Below, piece after piece: positions 37,575 to 55,738 of a DNA stretch of 64,000 nucleotides. The notes below the pieces were generated by a model. The model was not told the origin of the DNA. It searched no databases and worked only from the letters and a program-made list of their open reading frames with translations. The stretch comes from Chloroflexota bacterium (GTDB lineage: Bacteria > Chloroflexota > Limnocylindria > Limnocylindrales > CSP1-4). The first letter of the stretch is position 1. Every line of letters begins with the position of its first letter. The stretch lies in contig DAOTXE010000019.1 of NCBI GenBank assembly GCA_034435355.1, forward strand, positions 9,026 through 73,025, given 5' to 3'. Made by a program: the position numbers and the translations under genes.

Positions 37575-37584
37575 GGAGCGCGGG

Positions 37585-38250
37585 GTGGCGATCTCGAACG
37601 GCGCACGGGTCCGGATCAAGAAGCTCGGGGAGCCGTTCGCCCTCGCCCTCGGGAGACTGGGGCTGACGCCGGACGGCCTCACCCTCGCCGGGTTCGGCAT
37701 CACGGCGGTCGGGGCGATCCTCCTCGCCGGCCAGCTCTGGCTGGCCGGCGGCGTCGTCGTCCTTGCCGGTGGCGTCTTCGACATGTTCGATGGCACGCTC
37801 GCCCGGGCGACGGGTCGCGTCAGCCGCCTGGGCGCCTTCATGGACAGCGTGTTCGACCGCTGGGGCGAGGCGCTCGTCTACCTCGGCGTCATCGTCGGCT
37901 GCTCGCGTGCCGGCTTCGGGGACGGTCCGTGGCTGGCCGGGGCGGCGATGGCGTCCGCGTTCCTCGTCAGCTACGTCCGCGCGAAGTCGGAGGGCCTGGG
38001 CTTCACGGCCGGGACGGGGATGGCCGCGGTCGGGCTCATGCCGCGCGAAGTCCGCCTCGTCGTGCTCACCCTCGGCCTGGTGCTCGCCGGCGCCGCCGGC
38101 GGCGTCGCGTCCGCGCTCGACGCTGCGGGCTCGATCTTCCTTGCCGCCGCGCTCGCGATCATCGCGGTCGGCGCCACGATCACGGTCATCCAGCGCGTCC
38201 TGCACGTGCGCGGGCAGGCCGCGGCGGAGGCGCGCGAACGCCCGAGCTGA
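37585..38250 (+). CDS. pgsA: CDP-alcohol phosphatidyltransferase (phosphatidylinositol-phosphate synthase-like)
   Basis: [31 protein letters not shown] (D-G-x2-A-R...G-x3-D-x3-D). GAGGAG RBS lies 6 nt before GTG 37585. Confidence 0.85.
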
Positions 38251-38311
38251 CCACCGAATCATCCTCGATCCACCCATCACCCCATTTCCACCGGAGGCAG
38301 AAGGCAGCCCA

Positions 38312-39574: not shown

Positions 39575-40674
39575 CATTGGTCCCCGGTGCTCCCGGCGCC
39601 ACCGACCGGGTGCCGGGACCCGAGGCCCGGGCCGGGTCCCGCGCCACCCCCGGAGCCCTCCGGGCTCCCCATCGCAGGGAGGCCGAGGGGCGGCGCATCC
39701 GGGCACGGATCGCCGTGCTCGCGTACCGCGCGGGAGCGTGGGTCCTCGCCCGCCTCCCGCTCGGGCCGGCGACGCGCGTCGGCGGGTGGATCGCGGTGGG
39801 CCTGTACTGGGCGTGGCCAGCCCGGCGACGGTACGTCCGCGCCAACGCGGCCCACGTCCTCGGCATCCCGCGGGGCGATCCCCGGGTCGGGCGGCTTGCC
39901 CGGGCGGTCTACCGGAACCAGGTCCGCTGGGTCCTCGAGCTGATGCGCCTGTCGCGGATGTCACAGGCACAGCGGATCGCCCAGATCTCCGAGACCGGCG
40001 CCGAGCCGTTCCACCGGACGTGGCTCGAGTCGAAGGGCCTGATCGTCGTGGGCGCGCACCTCGGCAACAACGAGGCAGCCGCGGCCGGCCTCGCCGGGCG
40101 CGGCTGGCCGATGCACGCCGTCGCCGACGACACTGCCTACGAGGAGCTGTTCGAACACCTCGACCGTGAGCGACGCAGCTGGGGCGTCGGGCAGATCCCG
40201 TGGCGGAATCTCCGGGAGGTCTTCCGGGTCCTCCACCGGCACGAGATCGTCGCGCTGCTGGTTGACTGGGGCTACCGGCCGGACGGCATCCCGGTCCGCT
40301 TCTTCGGCGCCTGGACCCGGTTCCCGGCCGGGCCCGCCGTCCTGGCGGCCAGGACGGGCGCGGCAATCCTCCCGTTCTGGGTGATCCGCACCGATGGCCG
40401 CCATCTCACGAACGTGGGGTCGACGATCACGGCGGCGTCGGACGAGCCGGCCGAGATCGTCCGAGCGACGCAGGAGATCGCCACCGCGATCGAGGCCGGC
40501 ATCCGGCTGGCGCCCGAGCAGTGGTGCGTGTTCAAGCCCATGTGGCCGGACGATCCCGCCGAGATCGCCCGGCTCGAGTCGCTCGGCGGGATGGCGCCCG
40601 GGGCCGTTTCGGCACCCGGCGCGCCCACCGGTTCCGGTTCGGCGCCGGCGGGCGAGCCGGTGGCGGAAGCATGA
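39571..40674 (+). CDS. lysophospholipid/lipid A-type acyltransferase (LPLAT, HtrB/PatA-like) 1
   Basis: [13 protein letters not shown]...[20 protein letters not shown]...HAVAD matches the LPLAT fold. GTGA overlap with ino1. Confidence 0.75.
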
Positions 40675-41660
40675 GCGGCCCACGGGCAGCCGGCGCCCCG
40701 CGTCGCCCCACGGCGATCCAGCGGCTGCGCGTCGGTCTCCTCGACGTCGTCAGCTGGCTTGCGACACGCCTGCCCGCAGCCGTGGCCGGAGGGCTCGCGG
40801 ACGCGGTCGGCGAGCTCTGGTACCGGGCGACGCCGGCGCGGGCCGCCCAGGCGCGGGCGAACCTCGGGCGCGTCGTCGCGCACCTCGCCGCAACGGGGAT
40901 GGCGGGAGCCCGGGCGCAGGCCGCCGCGGACGATCCCGCTGCGCTGGAGCGCCTGGTCCGGGCCGCCTACCGGCATGCAGCCAGGACGTACGCGGAGCTG
41001 ATCCGGGGGGCAGCCGTGGTCCGCGAGGCACCGGCTCGAACCCGCATCGAGACGCCCGCCGCGGTCGACGCCGCCTTCGGCGTCCGGCCCGCGATCTTTG
41101 CCTCCCTCCACTTCGGGTCGCTCCAGGCGACCGAGGCCATCCTGCTCACCCGCCTCGACACGCCGATCACCGCGCCCATGGAGACGCTCGACGACCCGGC
41201 GCTGCAGGCGTTCGTGGCACGGGCCCGCTCCGCCTCGGGCGTTCGCCTCGTCACGCTCGACGCGGCACGGCGCGAGCTCCGCGCGGCGCTCGGCCGGGGC
41301 GAGCTCGTCGGCGTCATCGGCGACCGCGACATCATCGGGGGCGGTGTCTCCGTCCCGTTCTTCGGATCGCCCGCGCCGCTGCCCGTCGGGGCCGCCCTCC
41401 TCGCCCTCGAGTCGGGAGCCCCGATCCACGTCGCGGCCGTTCGCCGTCTCCGCGGGGAGCGCTATGCCGGCCGGCTCGAGACGATCGCGCCGCCGAGCGG
41501 CGCCCTCGCCGCCGGGCCGGGCGCCCGTCGCGCCAGAGTCGAGGCCCTTCTTGCCGACGAGGTCGCCGTGTTCGAGCGTTTCATCGCCGACGCCCCCGAA
41601 CAGTGGTGGGCCGTCTTCTTCCCGATCTGGCCGGATCTCGGCCTGGCGGCCCGGCCGTGA
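40671..41660 (+). CDS. lysophospholipid/lipid A-type acyltransferase (LPLAT) 2
   Basis: This is a paralogue of the upstream gene: FASLHFGSLQATEAI...GELVGVIGDRDIIGGGVSVPFFGSPAPLPVGAALLALESGAPIHVAAV. ATGA overlap. Confidence 0.8.
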   Translation: MSGPRAAGAPRRPTAIQRLRVGLLDVVSWLATRLPAAVAGGLADAVGELWYRATPARAAQARANLGRVVAHLAATGMAGARAQAAADDPAALERLVRAAYRHAARTYAELIRGAAVVREAPARTRIETPAAVDAAFGVRPAIFASLHFGSLQATEAILLTRLDTPITAPMETLDDPALQAFVARARSASGVRLVTLDAARRELRAALGRGELVGVIGDRDIIGGGVSVPFFGSPAPLPVGAALLALESGAPIHVAAVRRLRGERYAGRLETIAPPSGALAAGPGARRARVEALLADEVAVFERFIADAPEQWWAVFFPIWPDLGLAARP

Positions 41661-42529
41661 GCGACGGCGGAACGACGCTGCGATCGGTCGGCGGACCCGA
41701 CCCGTCGGAGCCGCACGGCCGCGCCGACCTGCACGTCCACAGCCTCGCCTCGGACGGGCTCGACGACATCGAGACGATCCTCGCCCACGTGCTGGCGACG
41801 GAGGACCTCGACGTCCTCGGCATCGCGGACCACGAGCGGATCGACGGTGCGATCGCGGCCCGCGCGATGGCCCGGGCGCGGGGCCTCCGCCTGGAGATCG
41901 TCGTCGGCGAGGAGATCACGACGCTCGAGGGACATCTCCTGGCCCTCTTCCTCGAGGAGCGGGTGAGGCCCTTCCGCTCGATGCGGACGACGATCGGCGA
42001 GGTCCACGAGCAGGGCGGCCTCGCGATCCCGGCCCACCCACTGTTCCCCTACCCGCTCTGCGCGCAGGGCTGGACGCTCCGGCGACTCGTGACCGCCGGC
42101 GATGCGCGCGTCCGGCCCGACGCGCTGGAGGCATTCAACCCCACGACATTCGGTCGGCTCGTGCACGACCGGGTCGGCGCGTTCGCCACGGCGCACGGCC
42201 TGGCGACGGTCGGCAACAGCGACGCCCACGAGGCAGCCGCGATCGGCACCGGGTTCACCACGTTCCCCGGACGAACCGCCGACGACGTGCGGGCGGCGAT
42301 CATCGCCGGGACGACCGGCTGGGAGGGATCCTTCCACCGGACCACCTCGCAGCTTCCGACCTTCGGGAGGCAGCTCCGCAAGTACAGCCGCGACATGCGC
42401 GCGGAGGTTGGCGGCCGCGTGCGGCGCGATGGCACCGGCCGCGACCTGGGCTACCCGGGCGGCCGCTTCCGGCCGCCCCGCCCCGAGCACGCCGGGAGCG
42501 GCGCGCCCCCTCACGAGGACGCGCCGTGA
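41657..42529 (+). CDS. PHP-domain metal-dependent phosphoesterase
   Basis: ADLHVHSLASDGLDDIETILAHV...LDVLGIADHERIDG...VGNSDAHE are PHP His/Asp motifs. GTGA overlaps on both sides. Confidence 0.8.
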   Translation: MSDGGTTLRSVGGPDPSEPHGRADLHVHSLASDGLDDIETILAHVLATEDLDVLGIADHERIDGAIAARAMARARGLRLEIVVGEEITTLEGHLLALFLEERVRPFRSMRTTIGEVHEQGGLAIPAHPLFPYPLCAQGWTLRRLVTAGDARVRPDALEAFNPTTFGRLVHDRVGAFATAHGLATVGNSDAHEAAAIGTGFTTFPGRTADDVRAAIIAGTTGWEGSFHRTTSQLPTFGRQLRKYSRDMRAEVGGRVRRDGTGRDLGYPGGRFRPPRPEHAGSGAPPHEDAP

Positions 42530-43707
42530 AGATCGGGCTCGTGACCCCGTACGTGTACCCGCTCCCAGGGGGCGTCAACGACCATGTCGGGCACCTGTAC
42601 GAGGCGCTGCGTGGCCGCGGCCACGACGTCCGGATCCTGACGGCCAGCCACGGCCTCCAGCGCAGCTCCGAGGGCGACGTCATCCGGATCGGGAAAGGCT
42701 TCTCCGTGCCGTCGAACGGGTCCATGGGGACGATCACGGTCTCGCCCCGCTATCGCAGCCAGATCCAGGCAGTCCTCGACGGCGAGCAGTTCGACCTCCT
42801 TCATTTTCACGAGCCCTTCGTGCCCCTCCTCGCCGTGTTCACGCTGCGCGAGTCCCGAAGCGTCAACATCGCCACGTTCCACGCCTACTCCGGGTACGCG
42901 CCCGGCTACCAGCTGGGCGGCAGGCTGCTGCGACCCGTTGCCCGGCATATCCACGGCCGGATCGCGGTCAGCGCGGCCGCCCGGCACTTCGCGGACCGCT
43001 ACCTGCCCGGCGACTACAAGGTGATCCCCAACGGCGTGGACCTCGCCCGGTTCGCGCACGCGGTCCCGATCGCGCGCTGGCAGGACGGCCGCCCGAACAT
43101 CCTCTTCGTCGGCCGGTTCGAGGCCCGCAAGGGGCTGCTTCCGCTCCTGAAGGCCTACCGGATCCTGCGCAAGAGCGGCCGCGACTGCCGGCTCCTGGTG
43201 GTCGGCTCCGGGCCGCAGGAGCGGGAGGCACGCCGCTACGTGATGACCCGGCGCCTGCCCGACGTGGAGTTCCTGGGCCGCGTGTCGGACAGCGACAAAG
43301 TCCAGCTCTTCAGGACGGCCGATGTCTACGTGTCGCCGGCGACCGGCCGCGAGTCGTTCGGGATTGTTCTCCTCGAGGCGATGGCCGCCGGGACGGCGAT
43401 CGTCTGCAGCGACATCCACGGCTACAAGGGTGTCGTCAAGCGGGGCGAGCAGGCGCTCCTCGTGCCGCCCGGCGAGTCACGCCCGCTCGCCGAGGCGATC
43501 CTCCGGCTCGTCGACGACCCGGACCTGCGTGCGCGGATGGAGGCGAGTGGCCTCGAGCGCGTCGCCGAGTTCGGCTGGGACCGGATCGCGGCCCGGGTGG
43601 AGGCCTATTACGGGTTCGTGATCCGGCGCCTCGCGGCGCAGGGCGCCCTGCCGGACGGGTTCCGCGCCGACGTTCCGCCGGACCCGCGGGCCGGCGTCGT
43701 CGGCTGA
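42526..43707 (+). CDS. GT4 family glycosyltransferase (PimA/MshA-like mannosyltransferase)
   Basis: KIGLVTPYVYPLPGGVNDHV...FVGRFEARKGL...ESFGIVLLEAMAAGTAIVCSD, a GT-B fold with the EX7E motif. Confidence 0.85.
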   Translation: MKIGLVTPYVYPLPGGVNDHVGHLYEALRGRGHDVRILTASHGLQRSSEGDVIRIGKGFSVPSNGSMGTITVSPRYRSQIQAVLDGEQFDLLHFHEPFVPLLAVFTLRESRSVNIATFHAYSGYAPGYQLGGRLLRPVARHIHGRIAVSAAARHFADRYLPGDYKVIPNGVDLARFAHAVPIARWQDGRPNILFVGRFEARKGLLPLLKAYRILRKSGRDCRLLVVGSGPQEREARRYVMTRRLPDVEFLGRVSDSDKVQLFRTADVYVSPATGRESFGIVLLEAMAAGTAIVCSDIHGYKGVVKRGEQALLVPPGESRPLAEAILRLVDDPDLRARMEASGLERVAEFGWDRIAARVEAYYGFVIRRLAAQGALPDGFRADVPPDPRAGVVG

Positions 43708-43716
43708 CCGGCCCCG

Positions 43717-46700
43717 TCAGGTTCGTGGCGGCTCGGGCGCTGCGGGCGCCTCGGGCGCTTCCGGCCACTCGGGCGCTGCGGGCGCTGCGGGCGGCTCCGA
43801 CAGCAGGGCAGGCGCGGCCTCGTCGGCCAGTCGCTCGGCGATCGCGATGCGCCACACCCAGGCGCTGTACCCCACGATCAGGACCGAGACGAGCACCGCG
43901 GCGAGCAGGAGCAGCGGCCACGGGCTGGCGAACGACACGGTGAACGGCGCGTCCGTGTTCACGGCGAACTGGAACGGGTAGAGCCACGTCGGCAGGAGGC
44001 CCTGATACCAGTTGAAGACGCCGTTCGGGAGCGGCAGCCCTGACCAGTTCGGGTAGAACGCAACGAACGCCACGGCCGAGGCGAGCACGACGCCGACGGC
44101 GAACCGGCGCGGCGAGCGGGCCGTCCACACGAGCCAGGCGAGCGGCCCGAGGACCAGCAGGAGGAGCAGCGAGAGAAGCTCGCCCGGGATGCTCGGGGTC
44201 TGGACCAGCGGGGTCACCGGGAGCAGGACGGCCGCCGCAACGAGGCAGGCGAGGGCAATGAGCCCGGTCGCGACGATTCGGCGTGAGCCCGCTGCAGCCG
44301 CGGCCCGGTCCGCGCCCGCCCGGACCAGCCGGTCGAGCCGGACCAGCTGCCAGACCAGGAGCCCCGCGCCGGCCGCGAGGACGACGATGAGGCCGACGAC
44401 CTGGGCCGTCAGCGAGAAGGGCAGGGACGCGGCGGCGGTGCACGCTTGGGAACCGGGGTCGACCCGCTCGACGCCGGCGAGCCCGCACAGCGGGCTCTTG
44501 CCGAACCAGAGGACAACCGGGACGAGGAGCGCCGCTGCGGCGGCGCCCCGGGCCAGCAGCCATGTCCGGGCCGACGGACCGTGCCAGAGCTCCGCCACGA
44601 AATAGGCCAGGCCGAGGATCACGAATGGGACCGTGGCGTAGTAGTGGTATTCGAACGTGGCCCGATCGATCCGCGCCCAGGAGAGCCAGGTGAAGGCAAT
44701 CACGACCGAGATGAGCCCCAGCCCGAGGCTCCTGCGCCGGTAGGCCTGCCAGGCGACGAAGGCGATGGCCGGGATGGCGAGCCACCAGATGACCGGGTTG
44801 CCGCCGTCGTAGATGGCGCCCGACATCGACCCGCCGAAGGACTGCTGGAAGAACCAGACCGGCTTGAGGTCGAGCGGCCAGGCCCACCAGGGCGACGCGG
44901 CCGGGTGGGTCGCCCGGAGGTTGTTGTGGTAGTCGTACATCGCCTTGGTGAGGTCGAGCAGCGTCTGGCCCGTGTTGCCCGGCGGCCAGGAGGACGTCAG
45001 GCGGTTGCCCAGGGCCACCCAGGGCAGGTACAGGGCGACGTAGACCGCGGCCGGGATCGCCCCCAGCGAGATTCCCGCCCAGGCCACGGGCAGGCCCCGG
45101 CGCCAGCCCGGGCGGAGCCAGCCATCCGGAGGGGGCGCAGGCGGGCCGAGCAATGCCGCGGGATCGTCGGGTGCGATCGGCGGCGCGAGCGGGCCGAAGC
45201 CGAGCCGTCCCGCGAGCCAGAAGGCCCCGGCGGCCAGCGCGGAGATGCCGAAGCAGCCGAGCGCGAGCGCGAGCGCCGCAGGCCCGAGAGCGAGCGGGAT
45301 CGCCACCAGCGCCACCAGAGCCCCGGCCGCGGCGGGCCCGGCGACCGCGATCCAGACTTCCTCGACCGACCACGCGATCGGGTGGAGCACCGTCACCGCG
45401 GCGGCCGCGAGGGTCAGCCCGATCATGATGGCGAGGAAGGCAAGGTTGCCTCCGGACGTCGCGCCGGCCGGGACCGAGACGGCCATGTACCCGAGCACGG
45501 CCGTCGCGCCGGCGAGGCCGAGGACGACCACGACCCGTCCGAGCGCCGACCGGACCAGGAGCAGGAGCGCGACGGCAGCGAGCGCATAGAGTCCGACCCA
45601 CTTGGACCCCATGGCGAGCCCGAGCAGAAGTCCCACGACCGGCATCCCGACCCAGAACGCCCCGCGCCAGCGCCACGCCCCCGTCCAGATCGCCGCGAAC
45701 AGCGTGACGGCGGCAACGATGAAGAACGCGACGTACGTGTCGTTCATGCCGATGCGCTGCTGGACGAAGAACATCCCGTCCAGCAGGCCGAAGATGCCGG
45801 CAAGCACGGCCACCGAGCGCCGACGGAACAGGATCCGCGCAAGCAGGAAGAGGAGCCCGGCCATCAGCGCGCCGAGGATCACGCCCGGGAGTCGCCAGGC
45901 GAACGCGTGCTGGCCGATGTCGACGGAGGCCGCCTGGCCGGTCGCCCCGAACACCAGGATCTGCTCGCGGTCCGTGGCCGGCACGTCCGGGTTGACGTCG
46001 GTGGCCCAGGCGGCGGGCGCGAACGGCAGGCGGGCGTCCGCGAAGACGCTGTTGCCGCGCGGCTCCACGACGTAGACGGTCCAGCCCGTGCCGTCCATCG
46101 TCCGGCCGAGCGCGTGGATCATCTGGCTCGCCGCGTCATAGGTGACGCGGCTGATGGCGGCGGGCATCCAGACGCTCTGCGAGAGGGTCGGCGCGCTCCC
46201 GTCCGCCGGGGTCCCGATCACGGCCAGCGACGACCCGGTCGCCGCGTACAGGAAGGGCGAGTCGAGGCCCGGGGCCGCGACCACGCTCGTGGCGCCCCCG
46301 GCCAGCGGAACCTGCCCGGTCACCGCGCCGCTCGTCGGCTCCATGAACGTCACGCCGGCGGCATCGGACACCGCGACCTGGGAGAGGCTCGTGTCGCTCA
46401 GCCCGGCGAGCGCCCCGCTCGCGATGGCGGCGTCGATCTGCGTCCTCTGGGCGGAGATGGCAGTCGAGATGACCACCTGCGACGCCTTCGAGCGGAGCTG
46501 CTGCTCGTAGGTTGCCGTCGTGCCGCCCAGGATCCTGGAGAGCTGGGCGGCGACGAACGTCGGGTCGGTCACGCTCGCCGGGTCCGCCACGAGCGCGGCG
46601 ACGGTGCCGGCATCGGCAACCTCCGAGCGGCCCGCCAGGATGACCGAGGCGAGCCGTGCCCCCGTTGCCGCGTCGAGCGAGACGAGCGTGTCGCCGGGGG

Positions 46701-48909
46701 TCGCCGCGAGCACCGTCGCGCCATCGTCCGTGACCCACAGCCGCGTCACCGGGCCCCCCGCGGACCCGAGCGGGACGAGGGCGGGCCGCAGCGCCCCGCC
46801 GGTCGCTGCGGCCCGCACGGCGGCGGCGCCGACGGACGTGTCGAGGGCGAGGATGTCACCCGAGGCCGTGCCGACGAAGAGCCGATGCCCCGTGGCGTCG
46901 ACCGCGACCGCCTGCGCGCCGGGCAGCGCGAGGGTGACGAGGAGCTCGCGCGTCTGCAGGTCGTAGACGCGGATGCCGGCACCCGTCGCGACGTACAGCC
47001 GGTTGCCCTCGGCCTGGCCCCCGCCGGCCGCTGCCGGGTCGGACCAGCCCTCCTCGATGGCGACGTCCGTCACCGGCACGCCGAGCGCGCTCGTGGCGGT
47101 GACCGTGTCGTCCCCGACCGCGACCAGCCCGCCTGCCATGACGTACTTGGCCAGGTGCGGGTGGGTCCACTCGTAGATCGCGTGCGGTTCGCCGTAGCGC
47201 CAGTCCTGCAGGAACTCGGTGGCCGTGCGCGCGTGATAGACCTCGTCGAAGTGCATCCGCAGGGGCTCGCCCAGCCGGAAGGTCCGCAGGAAGAGCGACG
47301 CGACGACGATCACGACGATGAACCAGAGGTCGAGCCGGTCGAGCGTGCCGCCGCCCTCGCGATCGAGAAGGTGCGAGCGATCGAAGGCTGCCCGCCCGGC
47401 GAGGGCGCGCGCGCCGCCGGCCGCCCGGCCCAGCGCCGCTCCGAGGCCGAGCCCACCCACCGGGGGAGCGTCACCGGGCCCGCCCTCTGCGGGCGCATCG
47501 GCCAGCGCTCCCCGCGGAGCGGGCGCCTCCCCGGCCGGCGGCGCGTCGTCGTCGGCCGCGATCAGCGCGGCGGTGGCGTCGACCTCCTCGGGGGCCGGGT
47601 GAACCAGGAACGCCAGCCCCGTGAGCAGGCCCCCTGCGTGGACGGCGGCCGCGGCGGTGACCCCGCCCCATGAGCGCGCCGCGTCGCCGAGCTGGGATCC
47701 CAGGCCGCCGAATGCGTCGAGCATCGGTCCGAGCCCGAGGTTCGCGTAGAACGGCTCGGTCAGGATGCCGTAGAGGTTGGCCGTATTCGCAGCCGCCAGC
47801 GCGAGATAGACCCCGATCCAGCGCGGGCTCACCGCCACGAGCACGGCCCCGAGCGCGAAGAACGGGAAGAGGTAGCGCTCGTGGACGCGGGTCGGCAGGA
47901 CGAAGAAGGCGATCGCAAGCACCGCCAGGGCCGCGAGGAAGGTCCGCCGGTCGTCGCGCCGCCAGATGACGGCGGCCAGGAACCCGATCATGCCGAGCAG
48001 CAGGGCAGTACCGACCACGATCGCCGGGATCCCGAAGACCAGGAAGCCCGGCCCGCCGTCGGCGCCGGCCTGCGTGGCGTCGCGGATCCAGGTCCCGTTG
48101 AGGGCAAGCCCCGCCCCGGCCTGGCTGACGAGCGCCCACGGGTTGAACGCGTTGACGGTCAGCCATGGGTAGCCCGCCGCGGTGTCGACGATCTGGTGGA
48201 GCAGGCCCACGATCGTCAGTCCGAAGGGGGCGCACAGGAGCTGGGCGGTGACCAGCCCGACGAGCGTCGTGGTCAGCACGCGGCGGGGTCCGTGGCCGGG
48301 CGGCCGGGTGACCAGGTTTCGGCGCAGGATCAGGACGGCAGCCAGGGGGATGAGGATCCCGAACTGGGGCTTGATGATCGCCGCGACGGTCGTGAGCAGG
48401 GCGGCTCGCTCGTCGCGTCCGCGCCACAGCTCGCGCACGGCGAGAAGGAGCACCAGCGTCCCGACCGAGTCGACCTGGGACCAGATCGCGCTGTCGAACC
48501 AGGTGACCGGGACGAACAGGACCAGGGCGGCGGCGCCGAGCGCGGCCCGCCGGCGCGCACCGAGATCGGCGGCGAGCTGGAAGACGGCGACCGCGAGCCC
48601 CAGGTCGGCCAGGATCGCCGGCAGCTTCAGGAGATCGCCGGGCGCGGCGCCCGGCCCGCCCAGGAGCTGGGCCACCAGGCCGAGACCCCACAGGACGTAG
48701 AGATACCCGGGCGTGTAGTCGATGAAGATCCCGCGGCCGTAGATCCCGAACGGCCCGTTCCGGGCGAGCTCCACGGCCCAGCCGTTGAAGGAGCCGACGT
48801 CCACCTTGAAGCCGGACCCGGGCAGGACGGCGTATGCGATGATGAGCCGAAGGACGAGGCCGAGCGCGAGAAGAACGCCGAGCGGGACGGCAACGTCCCG
48901 AAGCCGCAC
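43717..48909 (-). CDS. giant polytopic membrane glycosyltransferase: N-terminal GT-C domain + PMT (GT39) N-terminal domain + beta-propeller-like insert + PMT C-terminal/PMT_4TMC region
   Basis: The first ~460 codons of the 2191-aa ORF track entry are Arg-rich and overlap a plus-strand gene, so the start is placed at GTG 48909. IKPQFGILIPLAAV is a GT-C motif. RMHFDEVYHARTATEFL...HPHLAKYVM matches PMT. YVATGAGIRVYDL...LFVGTASGDILALD is propeller-like. YDYHNNLRATHPAASPWWAWPLDLKPVWFF...GNPVIWWLAIPAIAF matches PMT_4TMC. Confidence 0.75.
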   Translation of the reverse strand: MRLRDVAVPLGVLLALGLVLRLIIAYAVLPGSGFKVDVGSFNGWAVELARNGPFGIYGRGIFIDYTPGYLYVLWGLGLVAQLLGGPGAAPGDLLKLPAILADLGLAVAVFQLAADLGARRRAALGAAALVLFVPVTWFDSAIWSQVDSVGTLVLLLAVRELWRGRDERAALLTTVAAIIKPQFGILIPLAAVLILRRNLVTRPPGHGPRRVLTTTLVGLVTAQLLCAPFGLTIVGLLHQIVDTAAGYPWLTVNAFNPWALVSQAGAGLALNGTWIRDATQAGADGGPGFLVFGIPAIVVGTALLLGMIGFLAAVIWRRDDRRTFLAALAVLAIAFFVLPTRVHERYLFPFFALGAVLVAVSPRWIGVYLALAAANTANLYGILTEPFYANLGLGPMLDAFGGLGSQLGDAARSWGGVTAAAAVHAGGLLTGLAFLVHPAPEEVDATAALIAADDDAPPAGEAPAPRGALADAPAEGGPGDAPPVGGLGLGAALGRAAGGARALAGRAAFDRSHLLDREGGGTLDRLDLWFIVVIVVASLFLRTFRLGEPLRMHFDEVYHARTATEFLQDWRYGEPHAIYEWTHPHLAKYVMAGGLVAVGDDTVTATSALGVPVTDVAIEEGWSDPAAAGGGQAEGNRLYVATGAGIRVYDLQTRELLVTLALPGAQAVAVDATGHRLFVGTASGDILALDTSVGAAAVRAAATGGALRPALVPLGSAGGPVTRLWVTDDGATVLAATPGDTLVSLDAATGARLASVILAGRSEVADAGTVAALVADPASVTDPTFVAAQLSRILGGTTATYEQQLRSKASQVVISTAISAQRTQIDAAIASGALAGLSDTSLSQVAVSDAAGVTFMEPTSGAVTGQVPLAGGATSVVAAPGLDSPFLYAATGSSLAVIGTPADGSAPTLSQSVWMPAAISRVTYDAASQMIHALGRTMDGTGWTVYVVEPRGNSVFADARLPFAPAAWATDVNPDVPATDREQILVFGATGQAASVDIGQHAFAWRLPGVILGALMAGLLFLLARILFRRRSVAVLAGIFGLLDGMFFVQQRIGMNDTYVAFFIVAAVTLFAAIWTGAWRWRGAFWVGMPVVGLLLGLAMGSKWVGLYALAAVALLLLVRSALGRVVVVLGLAGATAVLGYMAVSVPAGATSGGNLAFLAIMIGLTLAAAAVTVLHPIAWSVEEVWIAVAGPAAAGALVALVAIPLALGPAALALALGCFGISALAAGAFWLAGRLGFGPLAPPIAPDDPAALLGPPAPPPDGWLRPGWRRGLPVAWAGISLGAIPAAVYVALYLPWVALGNRLTSSWPPGNTGQTLLDLTKAMYDYHNNLRATHPAASPWWAWPLDLKPVWFFQQSFGGSMSGAIYDGGNPVIWWLAIPAIAFVAWQAYRRRSLGLGLISVVIAFTWLSWARIDRATFEYHYYATVPFVILGLAYFVAELWHGPSARTWLLARGAAAAALLVPVVLWFGKSPLCGLAGVERVDPGSQACTAAASLPFSLTAQVVGLIVVLAAGAGLLVWQLVRLDRLVRAGADRAAAAAGSRRIVATGLIALACLVAAAVLLPVTPLVQTPSIPGELLSLLLLLVLGPLAWLVWTARSPRRFAVGVVLASAVAFVAFYPNWSGLPLPNGVFNWYQGLLPTWLYPFQFAVNTDAPFTVSFASPWPLLLLAAVLVSVLIVGYSAWVWRIAIAERLADEAAPALLSEPPAAPAAPEWPEAPEAPAAPEPPRT

Positions 48910-48990
48910 CCGGGCCTGCTCGCCCGCCCGCGCCCGCTCGCCCGGTGCGGGGCCAGCCAAGGGGAACGGCCTCCGTGATCGAGCGCTGAG

Positions 48991-50397
48991 GTGAACCGGA
49001 GTATAGCCGAGGGCTCGGACGACCTTGCCCCTCGGCCGGCCCGGGCAGCCGCCTCGCGGCCTCGTTCCCCGCTCGCCGTGGGGCTGGGCCTCATGGTCCT
49101 GTTCCTGGCCCTGTATCTCCTCACCCGGCCCTGGTGGCCGACGGTCTACAACCACTTCGTCTGGCAGGCGGACGCCTTCCTCCACGGCCAGGCCTCCATC
49201 CGCTTCCCGGTCCCGGCGACGGGCACCTCGCCGGGCAACGACTTCTTCAATGACGTCGTCCCCGTTCTCGACGCCGCCGGGAACGAGACGGGCCGCGGGA
49301 TGATCCCGTTCCCGCCCCTGCCGGCCGTGATCCTCCTCCCGTTCGTGGCGATCTGGGGGATGGCCACCGACGAGACGTTCCTGTCCGTCCTGCTCGGTGC
49401 GATGGACGTCGGGCTCGCCTACTGGCTCCTTGGCAGGCTGCCGGTCCGCGCCGGGCTTCGCGCCGCCCTCACGGTCTTCCTGGGGGCCGGGACGGCGCTT
49501 TGGTATGCCTCGTCGCTCGGCACGACGTGGTACATAGCGCACGTGGTCGCGGTCGGGCTCGCGCTCGGCGCGGTCGGGCTCGCGCTCGATGCCGACGGCC
49601 GGACGGCCGCGCTCGACGCGGGCGCGCCTCGCCCCCTCCTCGACTGGCGCCAGGTCGCCGCCGGCCTTCTCCTGGGTCTCGCGGTGACGAGCCGGCTGAC
49701 CGTGGTCTTCGGGGCGGTGTTCCTTCTCTTCGTCGGCGGGGGCGGCTCGTGGACACGACGGACCGTCAGCGCGGGGCTCGGCATGGCGATCCCGGTCGGA
49801 GCGCTGCTCCTGTACAACCTCGCGGTGAGCGGGACGCCGTTCAACTCCATCTACGAGGCGCTCTACCGTTACGAGGTGTGGGCCTACCCCGAGCTCCACT
49901 ACAACGGGGCATGGGCACTGGAGGACCTCCGCTACATCCCCCAGAACCTCGGGATCATGCTGGGCGGCCTTCCGGACGTGCTGCCCGCCTGCGACGCCGG
50001 CGTTCCGCGCGAGATCTGGAGCGCTGCCGGGTGCTCCTGGCTGGTGCCCAACCCGGTCGGGATGAGCCTGCTGCTCACCAGCCCGGCCTGGCTCCTGGCC
50101 GCCGCCGCGCTGCCACTCCTGCGTGACCGGAGGGTCGTGGGGGCCTTCCTCGCGACGCTCGCCATCGCGGTCGCCAACCTGATGCACTTCTCGCAGGGCT
50201 GGGTCCAGTTCGGCTACCGGTTCAGCCTCGACTTCGCGCCGTTCCTGCTGGTCCCGCTCGCCCTCGGCGCAGAGCGGCTCGTGGCCCGCCATGGCGCCCG
50301 CACGCGCCGTGGCGGGCTGCTCGTCGGCGGCCTGATCGCGGCCTCCGTCGTCGTGCAGGCTTGGGGGCTCGTGTGGGCCAGGGTGCTCGGCTGGTGA
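48991..50397 (+). CDS. GT-C fold polytopic membrane glycosyltransferase-like protein
   Basis: Multiple TM helices. This gene is divergent from the giant GT and couples (GTGA overlap) with the downstream gene. Its family could not be assigned. Confidence 0.6.
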   Translation: MNRSIAEGSDDLAPRPARAAASRPRSPLAVGLGLMVLFLALYLLTRPWWPTVYNHFVWQADAFLHGQASIRFPVPATGTSPGNDFFNDVVPVLDAAGNETGRGMIPFPPLPAVILLPFVAIWGMATDETFLSVLLGAMDVGLAYWLLGRLPVRAGLRAALTVFLGAGTALWYASSLGTTWYIAHVVAVGLALGAVGLALDADGRTAALDAGAPRPLLDWRQVAAGLLLGLAVTSRLTVVFGAVFLLFVGGGGSWTRRTVSAGLGMAIPVGALLLYNLAVSGTPFNSIYEALYRYEVWAYPELHYNGAWALEDLRYIPQNLGIMLGGLPDVLPACDAGVPREIWSAAGCSWLVPNPVGMSLLLTSPAWLLAAAALPLLRDRRVVGAFLATLAIAVANLMHFSQGWVQFGYRFSLDFAPFLLVPLALGAERLVARHGARTRRGGLLVGGLIAASVVVQAWGLVWARVLGW

Positions 50398-51980
50398 TCG
50401 CCGGCAAGCGAAGGGGGGAGCTGGATCGCCGGATCGCGCTGGCGAGCGTCGCTGCGCCCGTGCTCGTCGGCGTGGTCGCGTTCGCGCTCGCCCGGTCGAC
50501 GCTGCTTCCCGGCCAGGGCCTCTGGGACACCGGCGAGTTCCAGGTGGTGGCCCCCGTGCTGGGCACGGCGCATCCCACCGGCTACCCGAGCTACGTGCTG
50601 CTGGGCTGGCTGGCGAACCTGCTGCTGGCGCCCATCGGCGAGCCGGCCCTGCGGATGAACCTGCTCTCGGCGATCACGCTCGGGGTGTCGAGTGGGTTGA
50701 CAGTCGTGCTGGTCCGCCAGCTGACGGGCCGGACGCTCGTGGCGGCCGGGGCCGGGATGCTCCTGGCGTTGACGCCGATCCCGTGGCGCGTCGGGTCGTT
50801 CGCCGACCCGCACATGCTCCACCTCGCCCTGGTCGCCGGGCTGCTCGTGCTGCTCGTCGGCTGGGAGAAGCGGGCGCGAGCCGTCCGGTCGGACGCGGAC
50901 CGCTGGCTGGTCGCCGCGGCTGCGCTGTACGGCGTCGCCGTGGGCAACCAGGCGCTCACCTTCCTGCTCGCGCCGGGGATCGCCCTCTTCATCCTCGCCG
51001 TCGACCGGGGCGCATGGCGGCGGGGGGGCCTGGTCGGCCGCTGCGCCGCCGCCCTCTTCGGCACGGCCGCGCTCGTCTACCTGGAGCTTCCGATCCGGGC
51101 GGCGATGGGCGCGCCGCTCGTCTACGGGCACCCGGACACGTGGGCCGGCTTCTGGTACGTGGCCCTCGGGCTGCAGTTCACCGGCGCGCTCGGCGGGCTC
51201 TTCACGGACCTTGCCGGCAAGGCGGGGGCCCTGGTCAGCCTGGCGACGGCGCAGGTCGGGCCGCTCGTCGCGCTCGTCCCGGCGAGCCTCCTGGTGACCG
51301 CCATCCGGCGGCCCCGGTATGCCCTCCTCTCCGCCACCTGGCTGGCAATGACGTGCTGGTTCGCGATCTCCTACACCAACGCCGACATCGACCGCTACTA
51401 CCTCGGCCCGATCCTGATCGCGGTGAGCTGGCTCGCGATCGCCGCCGGCGCGGTCGCCGACGCGGTCGAGGCGCAGCTGTTCGTGAGCCCCGACGACGCG
51501 GGGAGGCACGCCGCCGCGGTGCGGCTGGTCCTGAGCGGCGTCGCCTGCGTCGCTCTCGTCGGTCCGGCGGTCATCGCCGCCCCGGCCACCCGGCTCGCCG
51601 TGGACCAGTCGACCGACACGCAGGCCGCCGACTGGAGCCACTGGGCGCTGCAGGTCGTCGAGCCGCACGCCGTGCTCGTGACGTGGTGGGACTACTCGAC
51701 GCCCCTCTGGTACCGCCAGCTGATCCTGGGCGAGCGTCCCGACGTCAGCGTGATCGACGATCGCACGCGGCTCGACGCGAACCTGGGAAGCGTGGACGAC
51801 GTGATCCGTGCGAACCTTGGCACGCGGCCCGTCTACCTGGTGCGGCGCGACGAGGACCTGCCGGACCTCGAGCAGCGCTGGCAGGTGGAACCGATGCCCG
51901 ATCCCGGGGGCCTGCAGGCGCTCCTGCGTGTCGTGGGCCCGGTCGCAGCGATTCGCCTCCCGGCTACGATAGGGCCATGA
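50394..51980 (+). CDS. DUF2723/TMEM260-like GT-C membrane protein (putative mannosyltransferase)
   Basis: GQGLWDTGEFQVVAPVLGTAHPTGYPSYVLLGWL, a polytopic membrane protein with a soluble C-terminal domain. GTGA overlap upstream, ATGA downstream. Confidence 0.65.
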   Translation: MIAGKRRGELDRRIALASVAAPVLVGVVAFALARSTLLPGQGLWDTGEFQVVAPVLGTAHPTGYPSYVLLGWLANLLLAPIGEPALRMNLLSAITLGVSSGLTVVLVRQLTGRTLVAAGAGMLLALTPIPWRVGSFADPHMLHLALVAGLLVLLVGWEKRARAVRSDADRWLVAAAALYGVAVGNQALTFLLAPGIALFILAVDRGAWRRGGLVGRCAAALFGTAALVYLELPIRAAMGAPLVYGHPDTWAGFWYVALGLQFTGALGGLFTDLAGKAGALVSLATAQVGPLVALVPASLLVTAIRRPRYALLSATWLAMTCWFAISYTNADIDRYYLGPILIAVSWLAIAAGAVADAVEAQLFVSPDDAGRHAAAVRLVLSGVACVALVGPAVIAAPATRLAVDQSTDTQAADWSHWALQVVEPHAVLVTWWDYSTPLWYRQLILGERPDVSVIDDRTRLDANLGSVDDVIRANLGTRPVYLVRRDEDLPDLEQRWQVEPMPDPGGLQALLRVVGPVAAIRLPATIGP

Positions 51981-52762
51981 CCCGGGCTGCAGCCGCGCCT
52001 CCTGCTTCGACGGCTCGCGTCCCCGAGCTCTCCTACTTCTTCCCGGCCCACGACGAGGAGGCCAACCTCGAGGGCCTCGTCGAGGAGGCGCTGGCGGCAC
52101 TGCCCGCGCTCGCCGACCGCTTCGAGATCATCGCAGTCGACGATGGATCGAAGGACCGGACGGCCGAGATCGCCGACCGGCTCGCAGCCGCGAACCCGGG
52201 CGTCGTCCAGGTGGTTCATCACGCGACGAACCTCGGCTACGGCGCAGCGCTGCGCTCCGGCTTCGGCGCCGCCCGGTACGGCCTGGTCGCGTTCACCGAT
52301 GGCGACCGGCAGTTCCACGTGGTGGACCTCGGGCGGCTGACGGCCCGCCTGGCAGGCCCGGATCTCCCCGACGCGGTCGTCGGCTTCCGGATCCGGCGGG
52401 CGGATCCGGCCATCCGGACCCTCTATGCGCGCCTGTACCGGCTCGCCAACCGGATCTTCTTCAGGCTCCGGGTCCGCGACGTGGACTGCGCCTGCAAGCT
52501 CTTCCGGCGCGATGCACTGGCCGGTGTCCTCGTAGAGTCCGGCGGGGCGTTCTTCTCGGCGGAGCTGCTGATCAAGCTCGAGGCGGCGGGCCGGCGGGTC
52601 GTCGAGGTGGGGGTCGACCACTACCCGCGGACCGCGGGCTCACAGACGGGCGCGAAGCTTGCCGTGATCTGGCGTTCGGTCGTGGACTTCTGGAGCCTGC
52701 GCCTCCGGCTCTGGGCGAACCGGAAGGGAGCGCTCGCGCGGGGCTCGGCCATCGTCCGCTGA
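51977..52762 (+). CDS. GT2 glycosyltransferase, polyprenol-phosphate mannose synthase (Ppm1/DPM1)-like
   Basis: LSYFFPAHDEEANLEGLVEE...FEIIAVDDGSKDRTAEIA...LGYGAALRSGF...VAFTDGDRQF. Confidence 0.85.
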   Translation: MTRAAAAPPASTARVPELSYFFPAHDEEANLEGLVEEALAALPALADRFEIIAVDDGSKDRTAEIADRLAAANPGVVQVVHHATNLGYGAALRSGFGAARYGLVAFTDGDRQFHVVDLGRLTARLAGPDLPDAVVGFRIRRADPAIRTLYARLYRLANRIFFRLRVRDVDCACKLFRRDALAGVLVESGGAFFSAELLIKLEAAGRRVVEVGVDHYPRTAGSQTGAKLAVIWRSVVDFWSLRLRLWANRKGALARGSAIVR

Positions 52763-53443: not shown

Positions 53444-55738
53444 CTACGGGGCCTTGGTCGGCCTGGGCGTCGCCGAGGCCTTCGGCCTGACTGACGGCCG
53501 GCTCGAGGGACCAGGCGTCCCGCCAGCCGCCGGGCTCGCGCCCGGCGAGCTGCCCGGCGTCACCGCCGGGACCGGCTCGAGGATCGCCGTGCCGAGGGTG
53601 GTGGCGTCGATCCAGAAGATCGCCGGCGCCTGCCCCGTGGCGCCCGGCTGCACGTAGAAGGCGCGTATCTGGCTCCACGCCGGGCTCCCGCCCGCGGGCC
53701 GGTACTGGGCCTCGTACGCCCCGGTCAGCTTGTCGAACGCCAGGATGCGCCCGTTCGCGGCGTCATAGACATACAGCGTCCCCTGGCGACGTGGGTCAGG
53801 CGAGTCGACGAGGGTGTAGGTGCGGATGGGGCGGAGGACGTCGTCGCCCGGGGATGCGAGCGACCAGCCGCCGGAGCTCCCACCGACGAGTCGCTCGACC
53901 ATGCCGTTGTCGGCCAGGTAGATCTCGCCGTCGATATACATCGACGTCACCTTGCTGATGTCCTGGGGTGTTGCGAGGTAGCCGGTTGCCGCTGCGGGGA
54001 AGCTCGACCCGTCGGCGAGCATGGTGTAGCGGAGGATCTGCTGCTGCGACGGCTCCAGGACGTACAGGTTGTAGAGCGCGGCGTCGAAGTTGGCGACGAA
54101 GGTGCCGATGCCGAGGATGTCGTTGCCCCAGGAGGCCGACTCCTGGACCGGGAGCCGGAGCAGGACGCCCTTCCCCGTCGTGTCCGTCGGGCGCCAGCGC
54201 CAGAGGATGTTCTTGTCGTCGAGGACGAGCAGGTCGGGCCCCCCGACGGCGAGGAGGCGCGGCACGCCGACCTTGATCCCGGCGCTCGCCACGGCCTGGC
54301 CGGCCTTGATGATCGGGACCGCCTTGCGTGCCCGCAGGTCGATCCGGTAGACGGCCCTCGTGGTGCGGTCCAGGACGTACGGCGCCCCGTCCGGCCCCTG
54401 GACGAGCCCGGCCAGGTCGAACGGCGGGTTCTGCGAGGCAAACGAGAAGGCGGCCTGCGGCGCCACCTCCACGACCCCGTACAGCCGGTCCAGCCCTGCC
54501 GTTGTTCGCGAGCGCAGCGGCCCCACGACCGACGCGGGGGTCCCGGCCGTGGCCGCAGCCGTCTCGTTCGTCAGGGCGTCCTTGAGCAGTTGCTCGGCGC
54601 GTTGCGGATCGGCAGCGATCAGGTCGGTCCCGTTGTCGAACACCAGCCGCACGTCGTCTTTCGCGGCCGCCAGGGCCTTCTCGCCGGCGTTGATCTGCGG
54701 GATCTGGGTGGTGCCGCCCGACCCGCCGACCACCCACAGGCCGAGGCCGAGCACGGCGGCGATGCCCACGAACGCGAGCGCGGCGACGGCGGCTCGCCGC
54801 TGGGTCTCGCGGCGGGTTGCGGCGGGCGTGACCCGCCGGTACCGGGCGCCCCGCCGAGGGAGGATGTCCTGGGCCCGCCCGACGAGCCTGGCGAGCGCGC
54901 TGCCGGCCGCGCTGCGTGCCCGGGTGGCCCTCGACGAAACGGCGGCCACCCCGTCTCCGACCGAATCCGCGAGGGGGATCGGCGACCGGTCCGGGTGGCC
55001 GGCGAGCGGCTGGGCCGGGCGCAGCGGAACCAGTCGCCCGCGCTGGGCCGTGGCCGGCACCTCGTCGGCCTCGAGAGCAAGCGCGGCGTCGCTGCCCGTG
55101 CCCCCGGCCGCGACGAATCGATGATGCAGGTGCTCCATCGCCGCCTGGGGGTGCAGCGTCACGACGGCATCCTTGAGCTCGTCCGCGCCCAGCTTCGCCG
55201 TGACGTTGGTGGAGACGAGGACGAGCGAGTCCCGGACCGCGATCTCGCCCCGCCAGACGACCGGCGCCGGGTCCTCCATCGGGAGGCCGCGCTCCCGCCC
55301 TGCGTCGGGCAGGGTCATGAGGTGCGCCTGGCGGACGAGGTAGGCCTCCACGGGACCGGTCGTGACCACGTAGAGCTCGTTGCTCCGGACCACGGCCAGG
55401 CCGATCCCGATGGGACCGGTCGGCCCGTCGCCGAGCGCGAGCCGGTCCCGCTGGGCGAGGAGGCGGCGGTTCGCCGCTCGGACAGCCTTCTCGAGGCAGA
55501 CGACGAGGCCCGCGGACTCGTCGTAGTAGTACTCGCCCTGGATGGTGTCGGCGACGAGGCGGACGGCCTCGCGCAGTCGCCGTCCCTTGCCGACGCCGGT
55601 CACGACGAGGAAGAGGCTCCCCTTGGAGCGGGCCGTCGCGCCGATCGTCGGCTCGACGATGACGACGGTGTCCGGGGAGTCCTCGAGCCGCTCGGTCTCG
55701 GCCACCAGGCCGAGCTTCATCTGCAGTCGGACGGCCAT
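53444..55738 (-). CDS. membrane-anchored protein: cytoplasmic PP2C-like domain (catalytic Asp motifs apparently replaced) - TM helix - large extracytoplasmic domain with Pro/Ser/Thr-rich tail
   Basis: GSLFLVVTGVGKG aligns to DGMGG. GIGLAVVRSNELYVVTTGPVEAYLV aligns to the GDSR strand. The TM helix is AAVAALAFVGIAAVLGLGLWVV. About 400 aa of extracytoplasmic domain follow. Confidence 0.55.
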   Translation of the reverse strand: MAVRLQMKLGLVAETERLEDSPDTVVIVEPTIGATARSKGSLFLVVTGVGKGRRLREAVRLVADTIQGEYYYDESAGLVVCLEKAVRAANRRLLAQRDRLALGDGPTGPIGIGLAVVRSNELYVVTTGPVEAYLVRQAHLMTLPDAGRERGLPMEDPAPVVWRGEIAVRDSLVLVSTNVTAKLGADELKDAVVTLHPQAAMEHLHHRFVAAGGTGSDAALALEADEVPATAQRGRLVPLRPAQPLAGHPDRSPIPLADSVGDGVAAVSSRATRARSAAGSALARLVGRAQDILPRRGARYRRVTPAATRRETQRRAAVAALAFVGIAAVLGLGLWVVGGSGGTTQIPQINAGEKALAAAKDDVRLVFDNGTDLIAADPQRAEQLLKDALTNETAAATAGTPASVVGPLRSRTTAGLDRLYGVVEVAPQAAFSFASQNPPFDLAGLVQGPDGAPYVLDRTTRAVYRIDLRARKAVPIIKAGQAVASAGIKVGVPRLLAVGGPDLLVLDDKNILWRWRPTDTTGKGVLLRLPVQESASWGNDILGIGTFVANFDAALYNLYVLEPSQQQILRYTMLADGSSFPAAATGYLATPQDISKVTSMYIDGEIYLADNGMVERLVGGSSGGWSLASPGDDVLRPIRTYTLVDSPDPRRQGTLYVYDAANGRILAFDKLTGAYEAQYRPAGGSPAWSQIRAFYVQPGATGQAPAIFWIDATTLGTAILEPVPAVTPGSSPGASPAAGGTPGPSSRPSVRPKASATPRPTKAP

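Follow-up and report, generated by a model that had tools for sequence, protein, structure and literature searches.

The question raised by this locus is which lipid-linked sugar is provided by the last enzyme of a three-gene block, and which membrane glycosyltransferases would use it. The window, by which we mean the whole 64,000-nucleotide stretch of DNA that was analyzed, spans positions 9,026 to 73,025 of contig DAOTXE010000019.1 (assembly GCA_034435355.1), a metagenome-assembled genome (MAG) of an uncultured member of Candidatus Limnocylindria (Chloroflexota). On the forward strand of the window, gene 1 (48991-50397) encodes a 468-amino acid (aa) polytopic membrane protein with a predicted GT-C glycosyltransferase fold and no Pfam family, gene 2 (50394-51980) encodes a 528-aa TMEM260-like (DUF2723) GT-C with a small C-terminal α/β domain, and gene 3 (51977-52762) encodes a 261-aa glycosyltransferase of family 2 (GT2) that is anchor-less and probably belongs to the polyprenyl-phosphate glycosyltransferase class. 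The reading we favor, by a little better than an even chance, is that the trio forms an extracytoplasmic glycosylation operon that resembles the Gtr-type "three-component" systems and uses lipid-linked donors, and it is likely that its GT-C enzymes decorate envelope proteins or lipids. A first-pass annotation of the same DNA had described an envelope-mannosylation supercluster in which this GT2 makes the mannose donor. The lipid-donor glycosylation locus in a mannose-rich neighborhood stands, but the role given there to the GT2 does not.

The window has a GC content of 72%, so long open reading frames (ORFs) occur in every frame, and genes were told apart from artefact ORFs by their codon-position GC. 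Third-position GC was 0.92, 0.94, and 0.89 for genes 1, 2, and 3, respectively, and second-position GC was low in all three. Two reverse-strand ORFs that lie antisense to the trio (48991-50292 and 50214-52100) were rejected as genes because their codon-position GC showed the opposite phase pattern, as expected of high-GC artefacts. For gene 1, we favor the start at 48991 to M35, the start given in the public record, since homologues of its product are 458-470 aa long and that R25, V30, and G31, all upstream of M35, are conserved. An identical copy of the gene 1 product is encoded on contig JBBINZ010000002.1 of assembly GCA_037443625.1.

Direct reading of the sequence places the start/stop overlaps of the trio at 50394-50397 (GTGA, gene 1/gene 2) and 51977-51980 (ATGA, gene 2/gene 3), exactly as first annotated. 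A promoter and terminator scan found no convincing terminator and no σ70-like promoter inside the block. Together with a gene order that is kept in relatives, these features give good support to the trio being a single co-transcribed and translationally coupled operon, so that its earlier description as co-translated carries over to a tightly coupled operon. Upstream, the spacer between gene 1 and a divergently transcribed giant gene (48961-48990, its length following from the starts chosen) is only ∼30 bp with the best-supported starts, whereas the called spacer is 57-150 bp in three relatives (L001, L003, and L004). The scan found no σ70-like site within it, and a spacer of this length means that both divergent promoters would have to overlap coding sequence.

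The identity of gene 3 bears most directly on the donor question. Its product matched PF00535 (E = 4.8e-24, 85.6 bits) and contains the motifs D55-D56-G57-S58 (VDDGSKDRT) and D108-G109-D110 (FTDGDRQF). The DDGS...DGD pattern had been taken for a polyprenol-phosphate-mannose synthase signature; the motifs are indeed present, but they are generic to GT2 enzymes. Among PDB sequences, gene 3 matched ArnC at 49 bits, the GtrB-like sll0501 at 34 bits, and the Pyrococcus Dol-P-Man (dolichol-phosphate-mannose) synthase 5mlz at 33 bits. The alignment with ArnC (residues 15-223, E = 6e-12) runs through the catalytic domain and into the region after the core, and it sets DGDRQ of gene 3, a DxDxQ motif, opposite DADLQ of ArnC. 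No NCBIfam model came near its cutoff on gene 3 (best score ∼53 bits versus cutoffs of 280-529), MftF, PgaC, and other unrelated GT2 enzymes are among the top matches to its N-terminal region, and its orthologues bear only generic names in their source records. Gene 3 has no C-terminal transmembrane helices and no hydrophobic segment after residue 199; the ArnC and GtrB chains are 322-345 aa long versus 261 aa for gene 3.

A positive control for these comparisons was available in a related metagenome cluster, L091, which encodes two GT2 proteins. One of them, GT2a, scored 209.9 bits against 5mlz and carries the sequences VDDDSPDGT and MDADLSHPP. The corresponding motifs, DDxSPDGT and DADxSH, which occur in known DPM1/Ppm1 sequences and are seen again in this control, are both absent from gene 3. 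Consistent with this, gene 3 is 46% identical to the second protein, GT2b, and 24% identical to GT2a, which is of the Dol-P-Man synthase (DPMS)-like type. With 33 bits to 5mlz versus 209.9 for the control, and without the motifs, the "Ppm1-like" label previously attached to the GT2 could not be upheld. The GtrB-like identity considered as its alternative agrees with gene 3 in the DxDxQ motif but not in the two C-terminal membrane helices, which are absent. On the basis of the scores, the motifs, and the control comparison, gene 3 is probably a lipid-sugar donor enzyme that falls, broadly speaking, within the polyprenyl-phosphate glycosyltransferase class, and it is not Ppm1/DPMS-like.

Gene 1 had no Pfam match even at E ≤ 10, and NCBIfam NF047440 (LA_3751/LA_3752 putative glycosyltransferase) scored 31 bits on it versus a cutoff of 200. 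The protein contains ∼11 hydrophobic segments. Its AlphaFold2 model (predicted local distance difference test (pLDDT) 78.5; predicted template modeling score (pTM) 0.83) was compared with the PDB by Foldseek, and all of the top 12 matches were GT-C enzymes (AglB, STT3, PglB, AftA, Pmt4, and ALG3), with probabilities of 0.98-1.00 and query TM-scores of 0.36-0.51, in keeping with the original assignment of gene 1 to GT-C. In an alignment of 27 family sequences (28-100% identity), the first outer loop always has an acidic residue at position 88 (Asp in 21 and Glu in 6), and R235 and R410 are invariant. A broad family profile found no match among PDB sequences at E ≤ 10. The family is large: a scan of 1.84 billion representative proteins returned 1,951 clusters with E ≤ 1e-3, of which 145 had E ≤ 1e-30, the ∼1,950 clusters being defined at 50% identity. 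Its distant full-length members again matched LA_3751/LA_3752 alone among curated models (24-49 bits), except for one that, with 28.7 bits, exceeds the cutoff of 25 for Pfam GT87 (the family of PimE) and one that comes close to the PMT_2 threshold. Given the GT-C fold of the model and the lack of a Pfam or PDB sequence relative, gene 1 is predicted to represent an undescribed GT-C family.

Gene 2 matched PF11028 (TMEM260-like) at 71 bits (E = 1.4e-19, cutoff 24.2), as did every one of the 120 gene 2 homologues listed, and a gene 2 profile matched the solved structure of human TMEM260 (9rql) with an E value of 2.8e-14. The DUF2723/TMEM260-like assignment made at first sight is thus secure, and the accompanying statement that TMEM260 is a protein O-mannosyltransferase agrees with the literature, in which it is described as the enzyme for IPT domains and only "distant homologs" are noted in bacteria (PMC10214176). 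In the literature searched, DUF2723 was mentioned solely in that paper. In human TMEM260, mutation of the donor-site residues D52 (to Ala) or H67 abolishes activity, the catalytic base D441 lies in a luminal Rossmann-like domain, and a following tetratricopeptide repeat (TPR) domain holds the acceptor (bioRxiv 10.64898/2026.03.17.711096). The profile alignment to 9rql sets D45 and H60 of gene 2 opposite D52 and H67, the pair being 15 residues apart in either protein, and both D45 and H60 are invariant in 38 gene 2 homologues. The human donor-lid residue Y267 falls opposite an invariant F262 and R264 opposite a non-conserved position, in a loop whose alignment is uncertain.

The AlphaFold2 model of gene 2 (pLDDT 78.5) comprises a membrane core followed by an α/β domain of strands and helices at residues 414-516. 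No TPR helices follow this domain in the model, and the protein ends at residue 528. Within the α/β domain, D455, D456, and D461 are invariant in the 38 homologues. A profile of the outer domain showed no similarity to 9rql, yielding only chance matches to importins, and for this reason the equivalent of D441 cannot be placed in gene 2. Foldseek matches of the model were again GT-C enzymes (STT3, AglB, ArnT, ALG9, and DPY19); the PDB set used apparently predates the TMEM260 entries, hence the absence of 9rql from these matches. Gene 2 is thus a bacterial GT-C of the TMEM260 family, and by analogy with its human relative, its predicted reaction would be the transfer of mannose from a polyprenyl-phosphate donor to Ser/Thr.

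Divergent from the trio lies a gene (43717-48960, reverse strand) for a 1747-aa fusion of a PIG-M-like GT-C to a protein O-mannosyltransferase (PMT). This protein had been noticed as a giant PMT fusion; Pfam supports the PMT part, and the N-terminal module is PIG-M-like. The N-terminal module (47521-48960, approximately aa 1-480) scored 24 bits against Pfam Alg6_Alg8, just under the cutoff of 25, and a profile of the module and eight relatives matched chains of glycosylphosphatidylinositol mannosyltransferase I (PIG-M) with an E value of 1.6e-10. The PMT part (43717-47340; GT39-like, Pfam PMT and PMT_4TMC), the boundaries of which, like those of the N-terminal module, are approximate, has its first helix, followed by an HFDEVYH motif, from about residue 547 onward and continues, after an interruption, from about residue 1014. 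PMT loop 1, the first outer loop, carries an insertion of ∼395 aa that appears β-propeller-like and matches PQQ_2 weakly. In tblastn with a stand-alone PMT, query residues 16-94 aligned to 47319-47104 and residues 90-194 to 45918-45586. Profile-profile comparison revealed no relation between gene 1 and gene 2, nor did BLASTP relate either of them to the giant protein, so the four GT-C modules of the locus are not recent paralogues.

A one-genome-per-species scan recovered at least 561 stretches that encode a gene 1 relative, and the best 80, nearly all labeled as Limnocylindria, Limnocylindrales, or Chloroflexota MAGs, were mapped with the window proteins. Synteny in relatives, which had been proposed as a check on the trio, was near-universal in these species-level loci: a PimA-like GT4 gene, the giant gene on the opposite strand, and genes 1, 2, and 3 follow one another, and downstream of them are a bifunctional-nuclease gene, a gene for a 764-aa protein and the gene for DciA on the opposite strand. 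A start that gives the exact 4-nucleotide overlap with the preceding stop was available at 54 of 71 gene 1/gene 2 junctions and 59 of 69 gene 2/gene 3 junctions; by chance, such a start would be in the right frame in approximately 1 in 3 cases. Gene 3 is the most conserved of the trio (68-87% identity to the window, compared with 42-82% for genes 1 and 2) and is missing from only one of the 80 loci (L065). Gene 2 is absent from L077, L078, L085, and L086 and reduced to a ∼270-bp remnant in L048 and L074, and in these six loci, gene 3 directly follows gene 1. The constant, conserved pair is therefore made up of genes 1 and 3, and gene 2 is a dispensable, accessory enzyme.

Two observations were made in passing on these loci. 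L037 contains a DUF2723 gene, 35% identical to gene 2, on the opposite strand. The 764-aa protein of the window (53444-55738, reverse strand), the gene for which is syntenic with the trio in nearly all Limnocylindria loci, has one membrane helix (residues 316-334) and a C-terminal tail rich in Pro, Ser, and Thr, matches no Pfam or NCBIfam model, and is possibly a glycosylation target.

More distant relatives place the trio in a wider context. A metagenome scan with a profile of distant gene 1 relatives yielded 80 loci on contigs with a GC content of 0.32-0.74, the relatives being 25-35% identical, and many of the loci contain tandem gene 1 paralogues. A homologue of the giant N-terminal module, either stand-alone or fused to PMT, was found in at least 22 of the 80, and PMT in at least 20, usually directly after the N-terminal module and beside the gene 1 relative, which is the layout of the window. 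The two are joined in a single ORF of ∼800-1000 aa in eight loci other than L089 and L091, and the lineages with this PIG-M-like/PMT fusion include a locus named as Patescibacteria (L118). Within 10 kb, L091 encodes two gene 1 relatives, a PIG-V/PMT_2-like GT-C, the DPMS-like GT2a, and an FG-GAP propeller protein, in addition to a four-gene run headed by the gene 3 orthologue GT2b and continuing with an N-terminal module homologue, PMT, and GtrA. In L089 (5296-7236, forward strand; contig named as Thermodesulfobacteriota), as also in L090, a single 646-aa ORF fuses a DPMS-like GT2, with the motifs DDNSPDGT and MDADLSHPP, to a GT-C of the gene 1 family. The Thermodesulfobacteriota-type clusters L089-L093 contain both the DPMS-like and the gene 3-like type of GT2, and within one cluster the two are 25% identical. 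In the Thermodesulfobacteriota-type and Patescibacteria loci, the flanks retrieved, which extend up to 6 kb to either side of the gene 1 relative, showed no PimA homologue.

These fusions and repeated neighborhoods tie together gene 1, the giant protein, and both GT2 types, and the linkage is independent of synteny around the replication origin. The point matters here because the window contains dnaA, dnaN, recF, yidC, and the gene for DciA and therefore lies at the origin, with the trio near dnaA. That the block is kept solely by its proximity to dnaA was considered and rejected, given that gene 1 relatives are linked to PIG-M-like and PMT genes on metagenome contigs of widely varied GC content, some of which are named as other phyla. 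With loci named as at least three phyla (L089 and L091 as Thermodesulfobacteriota or Dadabacteria and L118 as Patescibacteria), the trio is part of an older module present in several phyla. As a separate observation, two high-GC metagenome contigs (L147, 11-2617; L149, 4252-7059) carry a TMEM260-like gene, 34-36% identical to gene 2, directly upstream of a gene 1 relative, the reverse of the gene order in the window.

Gtr-type periplasmic glycosylation is reportedly a three-component process involving GtrB (a GT2), the flippase GtrA, and a GT-C (Mann and Whitfield 2016). The locus can be read through a minimal scheme of this kind, in which a GT2 charges polyprenyl phosphate, a flippase translocates the product, and a GT-C passes the sugar on to its acceptor (Kelly et al. 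2024, PMC11127046). Gene 3 would act as a peripheral GT2 at the cytoplasmic face and use a nucleotide sugar to charge polyprenyl phosphate with a monosaccharide; the lipid-linked sugar would then be flipped across the membrane by a flippase encoded outside the window; and, on the outer side, the products of genes 1 and 2 would take single sugars from polyprenyl-phosphate donors and attach them to acceptors in the envelope. The divergent giant protein, with its PIG-M-like GT-C and PMT parts, would form the other half of the module. Acceptors may be Ser/Thr residues of secreted or membrane proteins, with Ser/Thr-rich envelope proteins as candidates, and possibly glycolipids of the phosphatidylinositol mannoside (PIM) type from the adjacent operon.

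As for the sugars, the GT-C enzymes are expected to use mainly polyprenyl-phosphate-mannose, because their PMT, TMEM260, and PIG-M relatives use a mannose donor and because a gene 1 relative is fused to a DPMS-like synthase. Since DPMS-like and gene 3-like GT2 proteins with 25% identity coexist in one cluster, gene 3 would, on balance, make a second, different lipid-linked sugar, and this is the weakest point of the scheme. A broader formulation is offered tentatively and is somewhat doubtful: the trio and the giant protein may be the Limnocylindria form of an ancient extracytoplasmic pathway of several phyla with four GT-C families, in which gene 1, given the fusion of a relative to a DPMS-like synthase in one lineage, is perhaps a new polyprenyl-phosphate-mannose-dependent transferase, gene 2 the TMEM260 relative, and gene 3 a new anchor-less synthase of a second donor, together building a mixed O-glycan from O-mannose.

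The adjacent operon mentioned above (37531-43707, forward strand) comprises genes for a phosphatidylinositol phosphate (PIP) synthase-like protein, Ino1, two PatA-like acyltransferases, a PHP phosphatase, and a PimA homologue. The GT4 that represents the last of these matched the Mycobacterium smegmatis PimA structures 2gej/4n9w over its full length at 220 bits, compared with 79 bits for the next match, and lies upstream of the trio in the related loci that extend that far. Ino1 scored 534 bits, and the PatA-like acyltransferases 131 and 82 bits, below the cutoff. A GT4 at the PimA level in the company of PIP synthase-like, Ino1, PatA-like, and PHP genes gives good support to the PIM operon proposed in the first-pass annotation. 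Mannosides of phosphatidylinositol (PI) are as a rule considered lipids of actinobacteria, and a literature search for them in Limnocylindria or Chloroflexi returned nothing relevant.

Several points weigh against the scheme proposed here. All functions of the trio, namely its catalytic activities, donor sugars, acceptors, and flippase, are assigned by homology or context. Neither the window nor the 8 kb around any Limnocylindria locus contains a GtrA-like flippase gene, a DPMS-like gene is likewise absent from the 8 kb around each of these loci, and in L091 it is the gene 3 orthologue, not the DPMS-like gene, that heads the PMT operon. The characterized GT-C relatives all use mannose, so gene 3 could yet turn out to be a mannose-donor synthase of an unusual kind. 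Without the membrane helices that GtrB and ArnC have, it could also be a soluble GT2 that acts on an acceptor other than polyprenyl phosphate. The active-site loop of gene 2 (residues 39-63) is modeled with low confidence, and conservation of the block within Limnocylindria could partly reflect a stable dnaA region.

Of the other explanations, the one closest to the earlier annotation makes gene 3 the polyprenyl-phosphate-mannose synthase that serves genes 1 and 2 as well as the two modules of the giant protein, with 37.2-52.8 kb as a self-contained mannosylation supercluster. Ppm1 catalytic domains and human-type DPM1 are likewise without membrane anchors, so the anchor-less form of gene 3 would suit such a role. 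Every GT-C of the locus with a characterized relative (PMT, TMEM260 (PMC10214176), and PIG-M) points to mannose, PimA adjoins, gene 3 is the sole GT2 within 8 kb in ∼80 species, and its orthologue heads the PMT operon of L091. We nevertheless regard this as rather improbable: gene 3 scores 33 bits to DPMS versus 210 for the DPMS-like enzyme of the related cluster, lacks the SPDGT and DADxSH motifs, and is nearer to ArnC than to DPMS; its orthologues are named only generically by the source pipelines; and a DPMS-like GT2 in the same clusters would make the gene 3 type redundant. Taking gene 3 instead for a cytoplasmic GT2 with some other acceptor, placed in the operon through shared regulation only, would account for the absence of membrane helices, for the failure of any curated family to reach its threshold, and for the presence of MftF and PgaC among the top N-terminal matches. 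This appears distinctly unlikely, as the ArnC alignment continues past the catalytic core with the DxDxQ motif present, the pairing with GT-C genes is kept across phyla (and with GtrA in L091), and within the trio gene 3 shows the highest conservation.

The neighboring operon suggests yet another possibility, that the trio acts not on proteins but on PIM-type glycolipids, which it would extend or decorate to give a lipomannan-like polymer, with genes 1 and 2 in the place of PimE and the mycobacterial Mpt enzymes. The PimA/PatA/PI-synthase operon adjoins in the Limnocylindria loci that extend far enough, PIG-M, to which the giant N-terminal module is related, adds mannose to a PI-anchored lipid, and one distant gene 1 relative exceeds the GT87 threshold (28.7 versus 25 bits). 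Gene 1 itself has no GT87 match, however, the TMEM260 and PMT relatives of known function act on proteins, and the same GT-C families accompany PMT in Thermodesulfobacteriota-type and Patescibacteria loci with no PimA homologue in flanks of up to 6 kb; on this evidence we consider the lipomannan-like product rather unlikely. The Gtr-like operon with a second donor from gene 3 is thus retained as the preferred interpretation.

To our knowledge, bacterial protein O-mannosylation has been studied almost entirely in Actinobacteria. The locus offers conserved gene sets from which the role of a bacterial TMEM260 relative and that of the unannotated GT-C family of gene 1 may be learned, and it bears on whether Chloroflexota make PIM-type glycolipids. 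The fusions, of a DPMS-like GT2 with a gene 1 relative and of a PIG-M-like GT-C with PMT, predict which enzymes act together. An easily made annotation error is also corrected, in that mannose-donor synthases cannot be recognized by a DDGS...DxD motif. Elsewhere in the window, among Complex I genes and directly after a NuoF-like gene (21731-23080), an 879-aa protein (23092-25731, forward strand) has two 4Fe-4S motifs in addition to a 2Fe-2S domain, a 4Fe-4S domain of the DPD type, and a pyridine-nucleotide-disulfide oxidoreductase domain; a typical NuoG did not appear among the ORFs scanned near the Complex I genes, which were part of the ORFs of that stretch.

The kind of system is known, and the findings at this locus overturn nothing in current understanding; what is new is the undescribed GT-C family, a bacterial TMEM260 relative without TPR, and an anchor-less GT2. 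For gene 1, the nearest described family is LA_3751/LA_3752 (NF047440) of Leptospira, the sole curated model to detect gene 1 and its distant relatives (24-49 bits), but all scores in the gene 1 family are far under the cutoff of 200, and the Leptospira family is itself uncharacterized. With Ppm1 and the Dol-P-Man synthase 5mlz, gene 3 shares the GT2 class and a GT-A type DxD motif, which is not family-specific, and in size it resembles the Ppm1 catalytic domains; its similarity to them is at background level (33 bits), however, the signature motifs are absent, and the real DPMS-like gene of related clusters is a separate gene. In mycobacteria, the PIM pathway proceeds through PgsA1, PatA, and PimA to polyprenyl-phosphate-mannose-dependent GT-C enzymes such as PimE. 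The locus resembles it in combining a PimA homologue and PatA-like, PIP synthase-like, and Ino1 proteins with subsequent GT-C genes, the products of which could use a lipid-linked donor. Unlike in that pathway, no GT87/PimE member is found among the GT-C enzymes of the locus, these enzymes also occur in distant loci with no PimA homologue in the fetched flanks, and the host is not an actinobacterium.

Human TMEM260 differs from gene 2 in length (707 aa (PMC10214176) versus 528 aa) and in its TPR "fingers," which gene 2 lacks; the outer domain of gene 2 has no detectable sequence similarity to it, and the donor lipid of gene 2 would be a bacterial polyprenol. The two belong to the same Pfam family, and gene 2 keeps the donor-site Asp/His pair at the 15-residue spacing and the arrangement of a GT-C membrane core followed by a small α/β domain outside the membrane. 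Gtr-type systems differ from the trio in that no flippase gene is present in the locus (GtrA occurs in the related L091 cluster), two GT-C enzymes of unrelated families are accompanied by two more on the divergent gene, gene 3 lacks the C-terminal membrane helices of GtrB, and the host is a member of the Chloroflexota with no O-antigen context seen in the window. What the trio shares with Gtr-type systems is a GT2 of the probable polyprenyl-phosphate class in one operon with GT-C membrane transferases and, as predicted, a lipid-linked monosaccharide donor that would be used outside the membrane.

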